DNA of 25,360 nucleotides from a virus (taxonomy: Duplodnaviria; Heunggongvirae; Uroviricota; Caudoviricetes), in the IMG/VR virus record IMGVR_UViG_2734482786_000001, positions 1 to 25,360 of that record; one strand, 5' to 3'. The position numbers were made by a program, and so were the translations under genes. Every line of letters begins with the position of its first letter. The first letter of the stretch is position 1. Under the pieces are notes generated by a model. That model saw only the letters and a list, made by a program, of their open reading frames with translations. It was not told the DNA's origin and ran no database searches. Positions 12,349 through 25,360 of this stretch are shown in pieces.

Positions 12349-14130
12349 TTAGATTATATTATAGGCCTTCGCTGACATAGATAATGTTCTAATCTGAACT
12401 TTTTGGGCATTCCATTCCTCATCGTTAGATGAATACTCATCAATAAACTCATTAACCACCTTAAGGTTTGACTTCTTATACTCGTTTATTTTTTTACTTA
12501 AGCTATCATTTTTACATGATTCATTCAAAGTAAAGCAAAGAGGAAGAAGATTCCCCATTAATCCAACAACCTCTGAGTCAAAACTACTTTGTGCACCAAT
12601 ATGCTCGAGTGAAACTAAGTCTAATTTTAACTCATTAGTTCCTCGCAATTTCTTTTCAAAACGTTCAAAAATATACATTATGAGCTTACGCTGGGAGGCT
12701 TTTTTATTTGTATAAAATAAATTTTTAACAAATGCCTCATTGAATACTTTTTCATTTGGACTTTTCGCAGAAAAGTATGCTATTGCTTCACTAATGGTTG
12801 ATTCGATACTACGTTTATTAGTAGCTTTATCAAGGCTTACTGCTAATACTGAATACTTGGCGTCTATGCCAGAGGGTCTTAATCGGCAAATAGCATTAAA
12901 TCTAAAGTGGAATCTCTCTAAACACATTAGACACTCTATTAAACTTTTTTGCGAAAGACTTCTAGATTTATCTCTTCTTTTTCTTAATAATGACAAAATG
13001 AATGGGCGAGGGATTGAAACATTGAATATTTCAAATGCTTTAAGTGAATTGTAAATATCTCGCTGATCCTGTTGAGGCCAATCATCAATATCTGGAGAAA
13101 TTATCTTACAATATAAATCAACATCTTTATGCAACTCATCCAAAAATGAAATTGCAGTTAATCCATAAACACCATCATTTATCTCTCTTTTAAAGGCACG
13201 GTATAGTTGATCTTCACCTATATAATTAAACTTAGAAAGCCACCAACACCTGACATAATCAACCATTGTAGCGTTACTATCTCTAGCTTCGATGCAATTA
13301 GTAATATAATCCCATTTCTCTTTGGCTTTATCTATTGGATATGTTTCAATACAACTCTGGAAAACTTTATTTTTAATCAGATCAAGGGAGCTTAAGTTTA
13401 TTCCCCTTGCATTCAAAACCTCGAAAATATCATACGCGTCATCTTCCTTGCCTACTGATATCCTTACTAATTTAAGATAATTAGTAACCATATTGTAAAC
13501 GGCATTCAAGCAAAAAAGGTAATCTTCCTTTTTATACTTTACTGCACCGTCACGCAACAAAGAAGAACATAATGCTTTCTTTCCTAGCTTTCTGCTTAAA
13601 TACAACCCAGCATATTGAATCTTTTTATCTTCATCGCAAGTCACATCAGCTTTATGCTCAACTCTATCTTGGAATTTTAGTTTAAAAAAAGCCCTGTCAC
13701 TATTTTTAGAAAGCTTCTCAACTACTGAGTCGCCATTAGAACTGACAGAATTTCTATTGAACGTCTGATTTGCGGTTACGATATATGTTTTAAAAATATC
13801 ATCAGCAAATTCGGCCTTCCCATTTTTTCTTAAAAACCTAGAAATTAAAGAAAGTAGAATTGTAATAACACTGAAACGCTGCTGACCATCAACAATCTCC
13901 AAAACATTATCACTGTCAGCACCAGACAATACAATTGTACCAATAAAGTACTCATTGAATTCAAAGTCATCCCCTTTGGGATTTAATTTTATATTTCTTA
14001 TTATGTCTTGCCACAATTCATCAAGTTGTAACTTTTCCCAACTAAATTCTCGTTGATTCCGTGGAATCACATAACGCTGTTTAACAGAAAGTATATTTTT
14101 AATATTTAAAGGAGTTGCATCAAAATTCAT
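12349..14130 (-). CDS. DUF262/DUF1524 (GmrSD-like) nuclease family protein; candidate anti-phage defence gene
   Basis: N-terminal DUF262 signatures (VIPRNQREFSW, EIVDGQQRF, FEVLNARGINLSSLDLIKN) and C-terminal His-Me/HNH-like DUF1524 signature (SLEHIGAQ…GNLLPL…N). Start set at first ATG 14130 (RBS-like AGGGAA); the track ORF starts at TTG 14181. Strongly AT-rich relative to flanking phage genes. Confidence 0.75.
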   Translation of the reverse strand: MNFDATPLNIKNILSVKQRYVIPRNQREFSWEKLQLDELWQDIIRNIKLNPKGDDFEFNEYFIGTIVLSGADSDNVLEIVDGQQRFSVITILLSLISRFLRKNGKAEFADDIFKTYIVTANQTFNRNSVSSNGDSVVEKLSKNSDRAFFKLKFQDRVEHKADVTCDEDKKIQYAGLYLSRKLGKKALCSSLLRDGAVKYKKEDYLFCLNAVYNMVTNYLKLVRISVGKEDDAYDIFEVLNARGINLSSLDLIKNKVFQSCIETYPIDKAKEKWDYITNCIEARDSNATMVDYVRCWWLSKFNYIGEDQLYRAFKREINDGVYGLTAISFLDELHKDVDLYCKIISPDIDDWPQQDQRDIYNSLKAFEIFNVSIPRPFILSLLRKRRDKSRSLSQKSLIECLMCLERFHFRFNAICRLRPSGIDAKYSVLAVSLDKATNKRSIESTISEAIAYFSAKSPNEKVFNEAFVKNLFYTNKKASQRKLIMYIFERFEKKLRGTNELKLDLVSLEHIGAQSSFDSEVVGLMGNLLPLCFTLNESCKNDSLSKKINEYKKSNLKVVNEFIDEYSSNDEEWNAQKVQIRTLSMSAKAYNII

Positions 14131-14224
14131 ATCATCATTCCCTAGACATGACCATGGGTTGATCGTTAATTTACTTAACAAGATAGATTAAAACAACTAT
14201 TACTAATTCATATCTCAGCGCGCG

Positions 14225-14243: not shown

Positions 14244-14292
14244 TGCCCGCTTTATGTAGTGGTTTTCATGCACCTGCATGATCTACGCAAAA

Positions 14293-14312
14293 GCCCGCCA
14301 GTTCTGGCGGGC
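14293..14312 (-). terminator. Rho-independent terminator after the tum/DinI-like operon
   Basis: GCCCGCCAG-tt-CTGGCGGGC hairpin followed on the minus strand by TTTTGCG. Confidence 0.45.
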
Positions 14313-14447
14313 CTTAGCAAAAACGATCCTCAAACGATCATGCGATCTCATGCGGCATAGACATGCACTACAGAGCTAACGCCTCGCAAGGGCTCGTTGT
14401 TCAACCTTGCTGACGCCAGAAGCAAGTTCAGACGCCAGCAACGTTTC

Positions 14448-14681
14448 TTAATGCAGCCAGCTGTCGTCTTCCCACACCTTCTGCATAATTTTCATCACTT
14501 GTTTTCTTTCTTCGTCCTGTTGCAGCCCAGTCAGTTCCACACCGTTAGAGCTACCTTTGCGGATACGAATTACCGTTTTTGGATACAGGGGGCGCAGATT
14601 GCGGTAAAGCTCGGATTCAAGGGCGTCCAGGGTAGACTGGCTAATCTTCTGCTCTTTATCGATCATTATTTCAATGCGCAT
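14448..14681 (-). CDS. DinI-like protein (or C-terminal DinI-like domain of a Tum-type antirepressor)
   Basis: Start at MRIEIMIDK… with GAGGTGA RBS; MRIE…DAL..EL…WED.SW pattern matches the DinI family as recalled. The track ORF extends upstream to 14753. Confidence 0.7.
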   Translation of the reverse strand: MRIEIMIDKEQKISQSTLDALESELYRNLRPLYPKTVIRIRKGSSNGVELTGLQQDEERKQVMKIMQKVWEDDSWLH

Positions 14682-14691
14682 AAAAGTCACC

Positions 14692-14880
14692 TCAGCTGAT
14701 GACATCCATTGAGCGGTTGTATTCGTGGCTTCTGATTTTTGCCATGAGTTCATCAGTCAATTCAGAAACCCACTGCAGAGCCAGCCCCTTCTCTTCATCA
14801 CTACACTCACTAGCCGCTACAAGCTTAAGAAAAAAATCAATGCGCTGGAGCTTCAAAGACTCCAAAAAATAGTCCTGCAT
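14692..14880 (-). CDS. Small SOS-regulated protein, possibly the N-terminal part of a Tum-like antirepressor
   Basis: ATG at 14880 with AGGAGG RBS, about 45 bp downstream of a LexA box; the longer track ORF (to 14982) would start upstream of the operator and is rejected. Confidence 0.5.
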   Translation of the reverse strand: MQDYFLESLKLQRIDFFLKLVAASECSDEEKGLALQWVSELTDELMAKIRSHEYNRSMDVIS

Positions 14881-14921
14881 CTTTCCTCCTATGACACCAC
14901 AAGCAATACTGTATACATAAC

Positions 14922-14941
14922 CACTGTTTATATTTACAGTA
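14922..14941. promoter_or_regulatory. LexA box (SOS operator)
   Basis: cACTGTttatatttACAGta fits CTGT-N8-ACAG and the 20-bp consensus TACTGTATATATATACAGTA; overlaps candidate -10 elements on the minus strand. Confidence 0.6.
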
Positions 14942-15033
14942 TATAATAATCTTACTGATGTAAAACGTTTTTTTACGTTCATCAGCCTGATATGCCTGGT
15001 ATTATTAAGAGCACGAATTGTTAACCCGCGTAA

Positions 15034-17448
15034 TTAATACAGGTTTCGCCACTTATCATCTTCCTGCAAACGCTGGTTCCGATAGAAGATACGCAGGCCT
15101 GCTCCTGACGGAATACTGCCGCCGCGAAGGAGTAAATCGACCTCTTTCTCGCTGCCATCAAATCCTCTGGACTTCAGTTCGTAGACGAGCTGCTGTCGCT
15201 GATGGTCTGTAATTCGCTGTTTGTAGTCTTTACGCCGTTTCGGTTTCACCAGGCGTAACCTTGCAGCCAGTTCCCGGCGCTCTTTTTTGCTCATACTGTG
15301 CAGGTAATCGTGCAACTCCTTGTCATCCATGCGGGTAATGTCCGTCCTGGTATCCCCATCAGCTGATTTGTCTTTCCCTTGTTGGTTCAAATTTTCAGCA
15401 AGGGGACAGTTATTGCCACGAGTCCAAGGGGCGCAAGCGCCCTGGTCGGCTGCCGCCTCCTGAACGTCAACGGCTTTACGAACCATTTTCCACTTCACTG
15501 CATGAGTGCAGATCTTGCCCTCTGCAATGGGTGACCAGATGCCATAAATACGAATGCCGTGATCGCCATAGGCGGTCGGCTCTTCGTTGATTTCATAAGC
15601 GGTTCTGATGAGGTGATATTTACGGGGAACCAGTACGCCGCCCTGCTTCATGATGTAGGTGGCAAAACAACCAGCATCAGCAGCAGCCAGAATGGCATCA
15701 AGACGCGGGTTATCCAGTACCGGCGCACCTGCATTTTTGTCCCCCTGTTGCCTTGCCGCCTGACCAGCCAACAATCGCAGTTCACGGTAAGCCTGACGCC
15801 CCGGAATGCCAAAGAAGCGGAATTGCTGAACACGATGCAAAGACGCCCAGGCATTCACGTATTCAGCGTTATCACGCAGAGATTTACCCGTTTCCTTGCT
15901 GATCTCGCCAGCCAGACCACGACCGTCAATGTTCTTACTGATATATTTCGCGATGTAGCTTGTCGGCGTTCCTTTGCGCGGGTTAATCAACTCAGACTTA
16001 AAGCGCGGCCCAGTGTTATTGCCCAGCTCCTCGCGGTCTTCACGGATGGCAAACTTACGCAGTAATGCAGTGATGGCACGGCGGTCTTTTTTGCGCATGA
16101 AACACAACAGGTGCCAGTGAACTGTGCCATCATGATGCGGCTCAGCCACCCGCACGCCATACCAGCGCAACCCGGCTTTGTGCATCGCCTTACGAAATGC
16201 AGCAAACATGCCGACCAGATAATCGCTGCTTTGTCTTACCGTCGCGTTTGTCCAGGTCGGGTTTGGTCTGCCGTTATTTAGCGTGGAATGGAAACGCGAC
16301 GGACAGGTGATAGTGTAGAAAACGGCGCAGTCACCGCGCATTTCCGCGATAAGCTCCAGACCTTTAACACAGGCCATCATCTCATTGCGGCGATGCGCAG
16401 GGTTGCTGCTGCTGGCGTTTACCACATCCTCCATGTCCAGCGTGTCGCCGTCTTCGTTCACCAGTTCATGAGAACGGAAAAACTCCAGCGACTTACGGCG
16501 CTGCTCACGTTTATGCATCACGGCTTCATAGCTGACATAAGGAGATGCTTTTTTGCTGACCAGGCAAACAGCGCGCAACTGCTCTTCCCGCCATTCGCAA
16601 CGCATCTTCCATAATTTCCGATACCACCAGTCGGCGCACAACATACGCGCCAGCGAACCCGGAATGAGTTCATAGGGCACGGGTTTACGGCGGTTTCTTT
16701 TCCGACGGAGTTGCTCAAACGCAGGTGGGATGACATCCAGACGCAGGGTCTCCGCTGCCACCTTTTCCCATGTCTTGCGGATTTCTTCTGGCTTAACGTC
16801 ATCGGTGGCATACAAATCACCACAAGCTGCATCAAGGCACATACTCATATGCGCAGCTACCAGGGTGGACAGGCGTTTCACCTGATCCTGACTCATTTCA
16901 GGCAGGATCAGCAGGCCGTCCAGCCCTTCATGGCTTGCCATAAAGCGAAAAGATGCAGATAGCTGACTGTCGCGTACATGCTCCAGTCGTTCCAGACATG
17001 GCTTAATCGTCTCACGTAAATAGCGGGAATAAGCCTTTGGCCTGCCCAGGCTGCTGAAGTATTCAATACGTTGCATCAGCGGCTTGCTGATATGGGAAGG
17101 CTGGGCGTTGACGTCCGCCAGAATGACCATGTCTGAATTAAAACGCTGCTGCTCATGCGCCAGCTTTGCCCGGCTAATGAGCTTATCCTGCTCCATTTCG
17201 CGCTGGACAGGATCACGTGATTCATTAAAGAAATAACGCTCCCAGACCTGATCACTCAGTGCCTCGCGGCGCAACTGTTCCTGCTCGTTATCGGCAGCGT
17301 ACAGAGTGATCAGGTTTGAAAGCGTAGAAACCGGCGCAACTTCCGCCGGGTCCAGATAAGGGTTAATGGCCTTTTTCGGGCTGTTCCATGAGAATGCTGC
17401 GGCAGCCTCGTTAAAGCCGCAGCAGTTGTTCATATCGGCATGAGTCAT
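15034..17448 (-). CDS. A: Replication initiation protein gpA (rolling-circle endonuclease)
   Basis: 804 aa; HUH-like motif region (…[10 protein letters not shown]…) and active-site Tyr region (…[10 protein letters not shown]…); ATG start overlapping the dam stop. Confidence 0.85.
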
Positions 17449-20454: not shown

Positions 20455-20483
20455 AAAATACGATCTCGTTATTGGATTGTCAA
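20455..20483 (-). promoter_or_regulatory. Candidate lytic promoter (pR-like): TTGACA-17 bp-TATTTT on the minus strand
   Basis: Consensus -35 (rc of 20478..20483), 17-bp spacer, -10 TATTTT (rc of 20455..20460); directs transcription toward apl/cII. Confidence 0.45.
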
Positions 20484-20497
20484 ATGGAGAGTTCATC

Positions 20498-21127
20498 TTG
20501 AAGATTAGTACAGGTGCAAATACGGGAGGGAGAGAGACCATCAAAAGGCTGATGACAGCCTATGGTTTCAACACTCAGATAGCGTTGGTTGAACACCTCG
20601 AAGCATCAAAAAGCACCATGGCAAACAGGATGTTACGTGATAGCTTCCCTGCTGACTGGGTTATTCAATGTGCCCTTGAAACAGGTATTTCTCTTCTTTG
20701 GCTGACAACGGGCCAAGGGGAAATGTATCCTCAAACAGAAGAAAAAAATAAGTTCAAAAACGAGAGTTCACCTACAGTTCGCCCCCTTTCAAAGATAGTT
20801 ATCCCATCAGTAAGGCAGGCAACCATTGAGAACGGAACGCTCGAAGAGATGGGGGATGTTTTCCTTGATCAGACTTTGATACCCGGAAAAGCCGAATATT
20901 GTTTGTACGTCAAAGCTAACGACGGCAATTACATTGTTGATACATCAACAAAACAGCTTAGTAACGGAATTTGGCTCATAGACATCGACGGTATGAAAAA
21001 CATCGTCAAAATTGCGCGCATACCTGGAAACAAAATAGTAGTTAACCAAGATGACACTTCATTTGAATGTTCTGTAGATGATGTGGAAGTCGTAGGACGT
21101 GCAGTCAAAGTAATCAAGAACCTCTAA
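20498..21127 (+). CDS. cI: CI-type immunity repressor (186 CI-like)
   Basis: HTH region …AYGF…CALETGISLLWLTTGQGE… resembles 186 CI. The track ORF starts at TTG 20477 without RBS; TTG 20498 is preceded by GGAGAG at 6-nt spacing. Start uncertain. Confidence 0.75.
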   Translation: MKISTGANTGGRETIKRLMTAYGFNTQIALVEHLEASKSTMANRMLRDSFPADWVIQCALETGISLLWLTTGQGEMYPQTEEKNKFKNESSPTVRPLSKIVIPSVRQATIENGTLEEMGDVFLDQTLIPGKAEYCLYVKANDGNYIVDTSTKQLSNGIWLIDIDGMKNIVKIARIPGNKIVVNQDDTSFECSVDDVEVVGRAVKVIKNL

Positions 21128-22152: not shown

Positions 22153-23184
22153 ATGGAAAAAAGCATTAGCACATTTATGTACCTATCCGTTTTATTAGGT
22201 TGTATATTCTTATTTATAAAATATCGACTTTATGTTCTCGATCATAGAAGCCTGTTCCAACAACCCTTGTTCTGGGCTGCAATAGGCCTACCTTTATTCA
22301 CCAGCCTTTACTTTGGTTCTTTTGTCTGGATAGATAAAATACACTCTTTTAGTCTTACAAGTCACGGTTATGAGAGATTTTTAGATATCTCGAAATTACC
22401 ATTACTCATCCTTGCATCTGCAGTACCTTTAGTTTCAATAGTAAACAACCTACACAGAACCAAACAAACAGAAAAACAGATCTCAGAGGCAGAAAGGAAA
22501 AACAGGGTAGATTTATATTACAACCACATGAAATTTCATCTTGATTTATATAAAAAAATCGAAGGAAAAAGAATAGGCAGCTACTACCCGGTTCAGGAAG
22601 CTCAAGCTGAAGCAATCTACCAACATTTTATAAAACATCCACAAGAACTATATAGAAAAGCATACCCACAATCTACGCCTGATGATTCTCAACAATTAGA
22701 TATTAATGAGCAATTTGTTATTGATTTACACAAATGTTGGGTAGAAATCAACGCAAGACTCAAGCAATTATCCGAGAGTGAAAATCAAATACATCCTACA
22801 GAGGAACTTTGCACAACAAAGATGAGAATATTTGTAGGAGTTATGATTATTTATGAAAAAACTTGTAAACTGTTGTGTTTAGGTGGATTTCATTATAAAA
22901 AGTCATTTGTAATAAATGATAGTTATAATAAATACCAAGTTTATTCACCATTTTATGATTTTGGCACTCTGTACGAATCACTGCAATCCTTAGAAGAGAT
23001 AACCTACGCCTTCTTGGATACTTGCAGAAATGAAGTGGTAAACTTGTACTTCCCTATAGAAGATAAAATTTTGATATATGGTGAAGGGATTCTAGAGAAT
23101 TGGTTCAAGTATTCTCAGTTCTTGATCACTATAGCTTATCAACCCGCCAAGATGTCTCGCTTACCCCAGCTGAGACGCGATTGA
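22153..23184 (+). CDS. Membrane-anchored protein of unknown function (cargo between int and att)
   Basis: 343 aa; ATG 2 nt after the int stop; three predicted N-terminal transmembrane helices, then a ~230-aa soluble domain with no motif recognised by eye; markedly AT-rich. Confidence 0.6.
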   Translation: MEKSISTFMYLSVLLGCIFLFIKYRLYVLDHRSLFQQPLFWAAIGLPLFTSLYFGSFVWIDKIHSFSLTSHGYERFLDISKLPLLILASAVPLVSIVNNLHRTKQTEKQISEAERKNRVDLYYNHMKFHLDLYKKIEGKRIGSYYPVQEAQAEAIYQHFIKHPQELYRKAYPQSTPDDSQQLDINEQFVIDLHKCWVEINARLKQLSESENQIHPTEELCTTKMRIFVGVMIIYEKTCKLLCLGGFHYKKSFVINDSYNKYQVYSPFYDFGTLYESLQSLEEITYAFLDTCRNEVVNLYFPIEDKILIYGEGILENWFKYSQFLITIAYQPAKMSRLPQLRRD

Positions 23185-23505: not shown

Positions 23506-25360
23506 TCAGAACGACCAGTTCACACCAGCTACCGCGTTCCACGGGGATTCCACACCGGCACTATGGCTATACCCCACCCCAAGATGCCCGCTTAACGTAC
23601 TGCTGAATGAGGCTTTAATACCTGCCTGGTATATTCCACGTCTGCCCGACAAATAATTGACGAAATTACCGTCACTATTCACTTTCACCCGGTTATCATC
23701 GACAAATTCTTTGCGCACAGCCGCCTTCAGCCACGGCTCAACTTCCATACCGTTCCCCAGACGCATGTTGTAACTCAGCGTTGCGCCCAGTTCACGATAT
23801 ATACTGCGGGTATCGACTGATTTCGATTTCATGCCATTGGATAAATGATATTCGGGGTTATCAGCGGTGAACCCCGTTAACGATGCATACGGCGTCAGGT
23901 TCCAGTTACCATCGGTAAATCGCATCCCGGTTTCAATGTGACCGCCCAGCCCGTTGCTGTGGTAACTGCCATTGGCGGCTCCACCGCTGCTCATTTTACC
24001 TGCTACGTTACTTTTAAAACGGTTCAGCTTCACGACACCGTCCAGATAGAAACCACTTTCATGTTCCCAACTGGCATAGCCGCCCAGAGAATAACTGCCC
24101 ACACTGCCATGTCCTCCGCGATCAAAACCGATATGTGAATGGGAATAGCCCATAAAAGCGCCTAGCGTGGTAATTCCTTCAGGAATATCATTACGGCTGT
24201 CGATCCCCACTGTCATTCCGGTCAGCGTCTGCTCAAACCCGGCACCCGCATCGGTGGTGACATTATTACGGGTGTTATACGTCGCCCCCCAGACATTATT
24301 GTTGTGTGGACTCGCTTTCATTATGTTCAACCGCTCGCGAATACTGTTTAGCTCAGCATCAAATACCAACGGTAATGTTGCTGCCATATTGAGTACGGCT
24401 GCCGTAGAAGGCGTAATGCGTTTCTCCGGAACGGGTGTCGGCGTTGGATCGGGAGTAGGGTCTGGTTTTGGATTTGGGTCTGGCTTTGGATCGGGTTTTG
24501 GGTCTGGCTTTGGATTTGGGATGGGGTCCGGGTTGGGTTTGACATCATTGGTCAGGTTCCAGTTGCTGTTGCCGTCACTTTTCAGGACATACTCATAGGT
24601 CCCAAGATCAACGAAACCGCCGGTATTGCCCAGCGTAAACGAAGCATCCCCTCCCCCTGTTTTCACCAGCGTCATCGCGTCGTCAGACTGTGGGCTGACG
24701 CCGGTATCCTGAACAAAGATTTTAAAATTACCAGTGGCGTTGTTGTTGACGACCAGTTGATCGCCCCGGGAGCCTGCAACGTTGGTATGCAGGTAGAAAT
24801 TACCGCTACCGGAAAGTTCATTGGTTGTCAGCGTATTGTAGATACCGTTAGTTGTGGCAGGCGCTGCTGTTTGTGCTGACAAATAAACATCACCGTCGTT
24901 GAGTAGCAAACTGTTTACTCTATATTCGCAGTTGCTGGTACCTGCACAGGAATTATTGCTGTTAAGCCAGACACTGCCCCGGCTGGCAGCCGTCAGGTCG
25001 GCAAGCGTGGTATCGACGCCATTTCCCAGAGTCAATGTCGCGCTATCGGTAATCCGGACCGCCCCTTCGAGTTTAACTGGCGTAACATTATCCCGTGGCG
25101 TCATTAACGACAGGCTTCCTGTCGCGCCACTGACCGATGCATCCGCCAGCGTACCTGCGTAGACGATTGCCGTACCGCCAGCGACCTGGAGATCTTCTGC
25201 CCGGGCCAGAGCCTGAAACTCATCTTTTGACCGCCCAAGGGTATATTGCCCGCCAGAGTTAACCTTTGTGGCGGAGTCCTGACCCAGGTTTTGCATTGCC
25301 CCACCCTTGCCAACCGTGGAGTCGCGAGCTTCGGTACCTGCTAAGGAAGGTGCGAACAAG
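23506..25360 (-). CDS. Autotransporter (type Va) outer-membrane protein, C-terminal part; gene continues beyond window end (host gene, possibly YpjA-like)
   Basis: C-terminal beta-barrel-type domain ending …VNWSF, Pro-rich PDPKPDP linker, Ser/Thr/Gly/Asn-rich passenger; no start codon context in window. Confidence 0.8.
   Translation of the reverse strand, partial: LFAPSLAGTEARDSTVGKGGAMQNLGQDSATKVNSGGQYTLGRSKDEFQALARAEDLQVAGGTAIVYAGTLADASVSGATGSLSLMTPRDNVTPVKLEGAVRITDSATLTLGNGVDTTLADLTAASRGSVWLNSNNSCAGTSNCEYRVNSLLLNDGDVYLSAQTAAPATTNGIYNTLTTNELSGSGNFYLHTNVAGSRGDQLVVNNNATGNFKIFVQDTGVSPQSDDAMTLVKTGGGDASFTLGNTGGFVDLGTYEYVLKSDGNSNWNLTNDVKPNPDPIPNPKPDPKPDPKPDPNPKPDPTPDPTPTPVPEKRITPSTAAVLNMAATLPLVFDAELNSIRERLNIMKASPHNNNVWGATYNTRNNVTTDAGAGFEQTLTGMTVGIDSRNDIPEGITTLGAFMGYSHSHIGFDRGGHGSVGSYSLGGYASWEHESGFYLDGVVKLNRFKSNVAGKMSSGGAANGSYHSNGLGGHIETGMRFTDGNWNLTPYASLTGFTADNPEYHLSNGMKSKSVDTRSIYRELGATLSYNMRLGNGMEVEPWLKAAVRKEFVDDNRVKVNSDGNFVNYLSGRRGIYQAGIKASFSSTLSGHLGVGYSHSAGVESPWNAVAGVNWSF

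Follow-up and report, generated by a model that had tools for sequence, protein, structure and literature searches.

The locus directly downstream of replication gene A in this Caudoviricetes sequence is, with high confidence, an intact SOS induction operon of a Fels-2-like prophage (Peduoviridae, P2 family), comprising a LexA-controlled switch, a 62-residue antirepressor (TumA, encoded by ORF1) and a 77-residue DinI homolog (TumB, encoded by ORF2). Comparative sequence evidence indicates that the Tum antirepressor and the DinI-like protein are products of naturally separate genes, and not of a broken or mis-sequenced tum gene. The anatomy of the operon, its conservation, the purifying selection acting on it and its identity to a tum gene that has been deleted elsewhere were computed here from the 25,360-nucleotide stretch of virus record IMGVR_UViG_2734482786_000001 (the window), whereas it was published work on an identical gene in Escherichia coli HS that showed induction to fail when tum is deleted and in a lexA(Ind-) background.

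In the lysogen, LexA would occupy a double operator that covers the -10 element of a promoter located just downstream of gene A. DNA damage would lead to cleavage of LexA and transcription of the operon, and TumA and TumB would then be made separately, each from its own ribosome-binding site. TumA, a predicted helical hairpin, would inactivate the 186-type CI repressor encoded at 20477..21127, so that the lytic promoter fires and the prophage enters lytic growth. TumB, which corresponds to the truncated form of 186 Tum made from an internal start, presumably modulates RecA filaments and the SOS response. The operon transcript probably ends at a hairpin followed by TTTT (14312..14289).

Organisation of the operon and its neighbourhood

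The features of the tum operon all lie on the minus strand (Table 1). The operon (14448..14964) lies close to the genome's cargo end, immediately after replication gene A (15034..17448), with which it shares its direction, in a layout collinear with those of Fels-2 and 186. The window and Fels-2 are collinear over the whole stretch from the tail genes to int (79-86% nucleotide identity). The first-pass annotation had described a 62-residue ORF followed 10 nt later by a DinI-like ORF in another frame, and both coordinates and Pfam agree with this; its view that LexA controls the locus as part of the SOS response, and that the 186 tum operon is its counterpart, holds. Its description of 186 Tum as a LexA-controlled protein of about 146 residues encoded at the same genome end was also accurate (146 residues, promoter p95, downstream of gene A).

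Table 1. Positions of the operon features and of the CI repressor gene within the window.
Feature	Position	Strand	Basis
TTTACA, putative -35 of the SOS promoter (equivalent to 186 p95)	14959..14964	-	Homology; conserved A-tract upstream
LexA box 1; left half doubling as putative -10 TACTGT (14941..14936)	14922..14941	-	Consensus scan, conservation
LexA box 2 CAGTGGTTATGTATACAGTA, core GTGG-N8-ACAG, overlapping box 1	14907..14926	-	Conservation
Shine-Dalgarno AGGAGG of tumA	14885..14890	-	Read from sequence
tumA (ORF1), 62 aa, stop included	14692..14880	-	ATG 14880 to TGA 14692
tumB Shine-Dalgarno GAGGTG; overlaps the stop codon of tumA	14688..14693	-	Read from sequence
tumB (ORF2), 77 aa, stop included	14448..14681	-	ATG 14681 to TAA 14448; Pfam DinI
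Stable RNA hairpin directly 3' of the tumB stop, without U-run	14403..14445	-	RNA fold
Probable intrinsic terminator, GC-rich hairpin GCCCGCCA-GAAC-TGGCGGGC then TTTT	14289..14312	-	Fold and sequence
cI, 186-type immunity repressor, putative TumA target	20477..21127	+	Pfam Phage_CI_repr (E 1.5e-28), Phage_CI_C (E 2.1e-30)

The motif GAGG(G/A)AA-N-ATG at the start of tumA is kept in all loci compared. The two genes are separated by a 10-nt gap (GGTGACTTTT), and the frame of ORF2, which is +1 relative to that of ORF1, is open upstream to an ATG at 14753. A run of five A residues (A5, 14740..14736) lies inside codons Ala47-Lys48-Ile49 of ORF1. A 101-residue reading of ORF2, with a 25-codon extension, was rejected: only members of the Fels-2 clade have it open, its length in other relatives is 1-22 codons, and no coding constraint was detected in it. 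A hairpin over the tumA stop codon and the tumB Shine-Dalgarno sequence was considered as a translational-coupling device and dropped, its stability being no greater than that of shuffled sequence (z = -0.6).

The ATG at 14982, which would give tumA a 96-residue reading, lies upstream of the promoter and operator and is therefore not the real start. Many database entries (P0001, P0004, P0009 and others) begin ORF1 at such an upstream ATG, with lengths of 96 and also 87-101 residues; the N-terminal extension of the 96-residue calls (14881..14982, minus strand) contains the promoter and both LexA boxes, so that this false start, frequent in annotations, swallows the gene's own promoter. The identity of tum is further masked by names such as “levan regulatory protein” or “hypothetical protein”, which the 62-residue gene bears in many phage records and in roughly one in five complete E. 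coli genomes.

Downstream of tumB, an 83-nt segment (14367..14449) that includes the first hairpin stands in place of a third gene related to orf97 and STM2726. This third gene of the SOS operon (orf97 in 186, STM2726 in Fels-2, ECHS_RS25360 in E. coli HS) is absent from the window; the corresponding Fels-2 region is 24553..25397 of locus L045. The hairpin motif (AACGTTGCTGGCGT...) is also found directly 3' of tumA in L018, L030 and L044, loci that have no DinI gene. The probable terminator lies inside a block that is 96% identical to Fels-2 sequence downstream of STM2726; a pattern scan made no terminator call at this position.

A GmrSD-type (type IV, modification-dependent) restriction endonuclease of 610 residues (12349..14181, minus strand; GmrSD_N, E 4.5e-32; GmrSD_C, E 3.6e-9) fills the cargo slot, with the SOS operon on one side and the portal gene on the other, in place of Fels-2 STM2723.1. 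A 343-residue ORF without a Pfam match (22153..23184, plus strand) lies between int and the prophage end, where 23187..23324 matches the att-proximal end of Fels-2 at 79%. A large ORF with PDPK-type repeats and a putative autotransporter-like C-terminus occupies 23506..25359 (minus strand).

A predicted colicin-type double operator over the SOS promoter

LexA box 1 (TACTGTAAATATAAACAGTG, 14941..14922 on the minus strand) has three mismatches to the 20-nt consensus and a perfect CTGT-N8-ACAG core. It is the sole site of such quality found by motif scan in the window, and none of 100 shuffled sequences reached the same score, in keeping with its first-pass description as near-consensus. The box is kept 5' of every ORF1 homolog examined, and ORF1 starts 41 nt 3' of it here.

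A scan with a generic sigma-70 pattern called no promoter at the tum operon, so its assignment relies on homology to 186 p95 and on conservation. The TTTACA hexamer (14964..14959) is separated by a 17-nt spacer from TACTGT (14941..14936), which in phage 186 is the annotated -10 of p95; TTTAC(A) and the A-run upstream of it are kept in 20 or more loci from different genera. The predicted layout, with a LexA box over the promoter -10, agrees with that annotated for p95.

LexA box 2 is off consensus at two core positions, and is kept in Fels-2-type loci with a long 5' UTR. The 45-nt stretch over both boxes is 86-88% identical to operators situated just 5' of the colicin N and colicin R genes. Judged by this resemblance and by its conservation, the operator (14907..14941, minus strand) is a colicin-type pair of overlapping SOS boxes and not a single box, and would be expected to accommodate two LexA dimers. 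A single LexA box is found in phage 186, PSP3, the Pantoea/Erwinia relatives and the ESSI-2-like relatives. We found no mention of a double SOS operator for Fels-2-like tum in the literature searched; its likeness to the colicin operators provides a modest lead on induction thresholds.

TumA alone is the functional Tum protein

ORF1 is identical at all 62 residues to ECHS_RS04495 of E. coli HS, a 189-nt CDS followed by a 10-nt gap and a DinI-like gene, and at 60 of 62 residues to STM2728 of Fels-2. Deletion of ECHS_RS04495 (“tum”) in the HS prophage DuoHS gave neither lysis nor virions after mitomycin C, and lexA(Ind-) likewise blocks mitomycin C induction of DuoHS (PMC12055606). The primers used for this deletion (NHR24 and NHR28) match the window exactly at 14878..14900 and 14672..14694; they fuse the ATG to the TGA and retain both GGTGACTTTTATGCGCATTG and the DinI gene. 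Because removal of ORF1 with the DinI gene still in place abolishes induction, the functional Tum is the 62-residue protein by itself, and the DinI gene does not suffice for induction. This small protein decides the SOS inducibility of Fels-2-like prophages.

ORF1 is under strong purifying selection (dN/dS 0.087; Nei-Gojobori, 33 unique sequences). AlphaFold2 models TumA with confidence as a hairpin of two helices (2-23 and 28-61; pLDDT 89.8). This fold is uninformative because it is too generic, and a Foldseek comparison of the model with viral models produced nothing significant (best E 0.66). Pfam returned only a sub-threshold chance match for ORF1, a profile search of the PDB found nothing, and a literature search on the names TumA and TumB produced no relevant match.

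The CI repressor as the likely target

[quoted passage not shown] The window also carries CII (CP76 family) and an ORF in the position of apl, and the region is collinear with cI-apl-cII of Fels-2. We compared the CI proteins of the window, of DuoHS (L046, 18700..19269) and of Fels-2 (L045, 31891..32523). TumA is 97-100% identical in these three prophages, whereas their CI proteins are only 38-62% identical, the window CI sharing 38% of its residues with that of the HS prophage and 62% with that of Fels-2. This divergence is unevenly distributed: the N-terminal domains of the three are 58-67% identical to each other, against 35-45% to those of 186 and PSP3, while the C-terminal domains are 26-27% identical in the two pairs that include HS and 58% identical between the window and Fels-2. 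The combination of a conserved N-terminal and a divergent C-terminal domain hints that the former is targeted, and suggests that TumA docks on it.

It might be argued that near-identical TumA proteins found alongside such different repressors (38% identity overall and 27% in the C-terminal domain) bring about induction by a route other than sequestration of CI, through Apl, CII or a host factor, with TumB perhaps acting as a partner that confers CI specificity; the authors of the Phollow paper state only that tum “inhibits pro-lysogenic regulators” (PMC12055606). We regard this as improbable. The binding of CI reported for 186 Tum speaks against it, the similarity of the N-terminal domains fits a conserved docking surface, and since many prophages possess tumA without tumB, TumB cannot be required.

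Inactivation of CI by TumA is the reading that we favour. A more ambitious extension, which we put forward tentatively and think less probable than not, is that TumA is a “universal” trans-acting antirepressor of Fels-2-like prophages which acts on the N-terminal domain of CI and cross-induces co-resident prophages with divergent CI proteins, the double operator setting a high, switch-like threshold. That TumA stays invariant while the CI repressors diverge offers a modest lead on prophage cross-talk.

TumB is a DinI homolog that looks dispensable

ORF2 matches the whole of the Pfam DinI profile (PF06183; all 63 profile positions, E 3e-23, 82.3 bits with the gathering cut-off at 24.2) and the structure of E. 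coli DinI (1GHH; E 1.6e-6). It is identical to Fels-2 STM2726.1 at 76 of 77 residues, 77% identical to PSP3 TumB and 41% identical to residues 71-145 of 186 Tum, Met1 aligning exactly with the internal GTG start (codon 71) of the latter. ORF2 is also under purifying selection (dN/dS 0.070, Nei-Gojobori).

The DinI-like gene has been lost or shortened repeatedly while tumA remained intact behind its LexA box. A shortened DinI ORF is found in L015, L026 and L043, and there is no DinI-like sequence within 1.5 kb in 13 loci (L009, L010, L016, L018, L027, L030, L035-L037, L039-L041 and L044). In view of these repeated losses TumB looks dispensable for the module.

Two genes are the normal state of the lineage

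ORF1 is present in 66 phage records and in 33 species-representative genomes from about 15 enterobacterial genera; wherever these carry an annotation, it gives two genes. The module is carried by 1083 of 5426 complete E. coli genomes, in which it is annotated as two genes; some E. coli genomes contain up to three copies. Across the 33 genome loci and the phages, ORF1 is 62 residues long in nearly all cases and a LexA box is always located 40-97 nt 5' of it. Where an intact DinI ORF follows, it begins 8-12 nt after ORF1 and its relative frame is 0 in six loci, +1 in 10 and +2 in seven; all relatives have a G-rich Shine-Dalgarno sequence in this gap, whatever the relative frame.

The DinI domain is absent from all of the best 120 homologs of ORF1, and no uninterrupted fused ORF occurs among these, the 66 phage records or the 33 genome loci. 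Within the phage collection fused Tum is restricted to a tight 186 clade (at least 92% identity), and the PSP3-type and Fels-2-type genes are split. The division of tum into two halves in Fels-2 and PSP3 has been described, with the antirepressor activity of PSP3 assigned to the upstream gene (PMC3121763); Bunny et al. 2002 is the primary source for the Fels-2 split, as cited in PMC3121763 and PMC8072944. The two-gene arrangement is therefore already known and experimentally characterised. It represents the normal state of this lineage, and the fused 146-residue Tum of 186 is another state of the same module. Once the split is seen as normal, such prophages need no longer be scored as defective.

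A programmed +1 frameshift, or other re-coding, could in principle add a minor TumA-TumB fusion that mimics 186 Tum to the products of two separate genes: members of the Fels-2 clade have no stop in the +1 frame over the junction, and the single gene of 186 yields both full-length and truncated Tum. This is very unlikely, as the relative frame is variable in relatives, with a stop codon separating the pairs that are in frame, and deletion of ORF1 alone produces the full non-inducible phenotype. Moreover, we detected no dual-coding constraint in the overlap region and no recognisable slippery site with a stimulator, and the junction hairpin does not exceed shuffled sequence in stability (z = -0.6).

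The sequence 3' of the A5 run bears directly on whether the gene has been broken. Codons 47-62 of ORF1 (IRSHEYNRSMDV) have a dN/dS of 0.10 in their own frame, compared with about 1.0-1.25 in the two other frames; these residues are kept as protein across genera, and the +1 frame over them contains stops in 12 of the 33 sequences. The first-pass annotation had suggested that tum might be split into two frames by a frameshift or a sequencing indel at the A5 run. The two ORFs probably do correspond to the two halves of Tum, but there is no lesion at this run, and the two-ORF layout that was to count against such a lesion recurs across many genera with each ORF conserved independently. That a once-fused, 186-like tum was recently broken by a single-nucleotide indel at 14736..14740, or by a sequencing error, with inducibility altered or lost, is refuted by the comparative data: the joined reading of about 143-145 residues is arithmetically possible and close to the 146 of 186 Tum, as the ORF2 frame is open for 25 codons 5' of its ATG, but an open stretch of this length is expected by chance in about 30% of cases, the ORF1 tail is conserved in its own frame, the best 120 homologs include no fused Fels-2-type protein, relatives either lack the DinI gene or have it in any of the three frames, and the identical split occurs in the 1083 E. 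coli genomes as well as in Fels-2 and in phages of Klebsiella and Yersinia, and is functional in E. coli HS.

One phage record departs from the common pattern. In phage 500465-1 (L001, NC_049342; 1721..2251) ORF1 is locally scrambled, with ERGWLCSGVSEL instead of EKGLALQWVSEL, the DinI ORF is annotated as 105 residues, and the length differs by 2 nt; errors of sequencing or assembly are the probable cause.

Probable relationship of TumA to the N-terminal half of 186 Tum

Alignment of both frames to 186 Tum, proposed at first pass, succeeded for ORF2 (see above) but gave no BLASTP hit for ORF1. A profile alignment (hhalign) of the ORF1 family with the family of Tum N-terminal halves pairs columns 4-43 with columns 4-43 (68% probability, E 4.7e-5), a weak direct similarity in which both profiles share the pattern (I/L)ERV/QRI ... 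C ... (I/L)AL..(I/V).E(I/L). In a tblastn search, residues 5-145 of 186 Tum form a single collinear alignment (30% identity) with the two ORFs of Yersinia phage MLG42, which share a frame. Since BLASTP finds nothing and the profile match is moderate, the probable homology of ORF1 to 186 Tum rests partly on synteny. Among the best 120 of 274 homologs of the 186-type N-terminal half, most are short stand-alone proteins of 63-91 residues, several of them named “Tum protein”, and only two of these 120 possess a DinI domain.

Comparison with known systems

One close counterpart is DuoHS, in which ECHS_RS04495 is followed by the DinI-like ECHS_RS04500. TumA is identical and TumB differs at one of 77 residues, and the 10-nt gap, Shine-Dalgarno sequence, double operator and position after gene A are the same as in the window. 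In contrast to the window, DuoHS retains the third gene, ECHS_RS25360 (678 nt), after the DinI gene, and its cargo genes differ. Fels-2 (STM2728, STM2726.1 and STM2726) has the same operator as the window, and its record likens STM2726.1 to TumB of PSP3; it keeps the orf97-like STM2726, which the window lacks, while the window has the GmrSD gene in the cargo slot. Null alleles of lexA kill LT2 through induction of Fels-2 (Bunny et al. 2002, as cited in PMC8072944).

PSP3 resembles the window in having a LexA-controlled pair after gene A, a 60-residue antirepressor gene followed by a 77-residue DinI homolog. Its record describes tumA as “similar to 5' end 186 tum; UV induction of prophage” and tumB as “similar to dinI and 3' end of 186 tum”. 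However, PSP3 TumA is of another sequence type than TumA of the window, the two genes are in the same frame with a stop and one codon between them, and the pair is preceded by one LexA box and a short 5' UTR. Phage 186 has tum at the same genome position, with a LexA box over the -10 and a C-terminal DinI domain, and an internal start that gives a DinI-only product equivalent to TumB. Unlike the window, it has the antirepressor and DinI parts fused in one ORF, with no more than a remote similarity between the N-terminal half and TumA; it also has just one LexA box, and orf97 downstream.

More distant parallels are found outside this phage family. The dinI-antirepressor operons of Gifsy-1 and Gifsy-2 (GfoA, GftA) are also LexA-controlled and combine a small antirepressor with a DinI homolog (PMC3121763), but the gene order is reversed, with dinI first, and these lambdoid phages use unrelated antirepressor and repressor families. 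The operators of colicin N and colicin R contain a 45-nt CTGT-N8-(A/C)CAGTGGTTATGT(A/G)TACAGTATT that is likewise placed directly 5' of the regulated gene. Their -35 region and downstream leader are unrelated to those of the window, and they drive a bacteriocin or lysis operon, whereas the operator in the window drives a prophage antirepressor.
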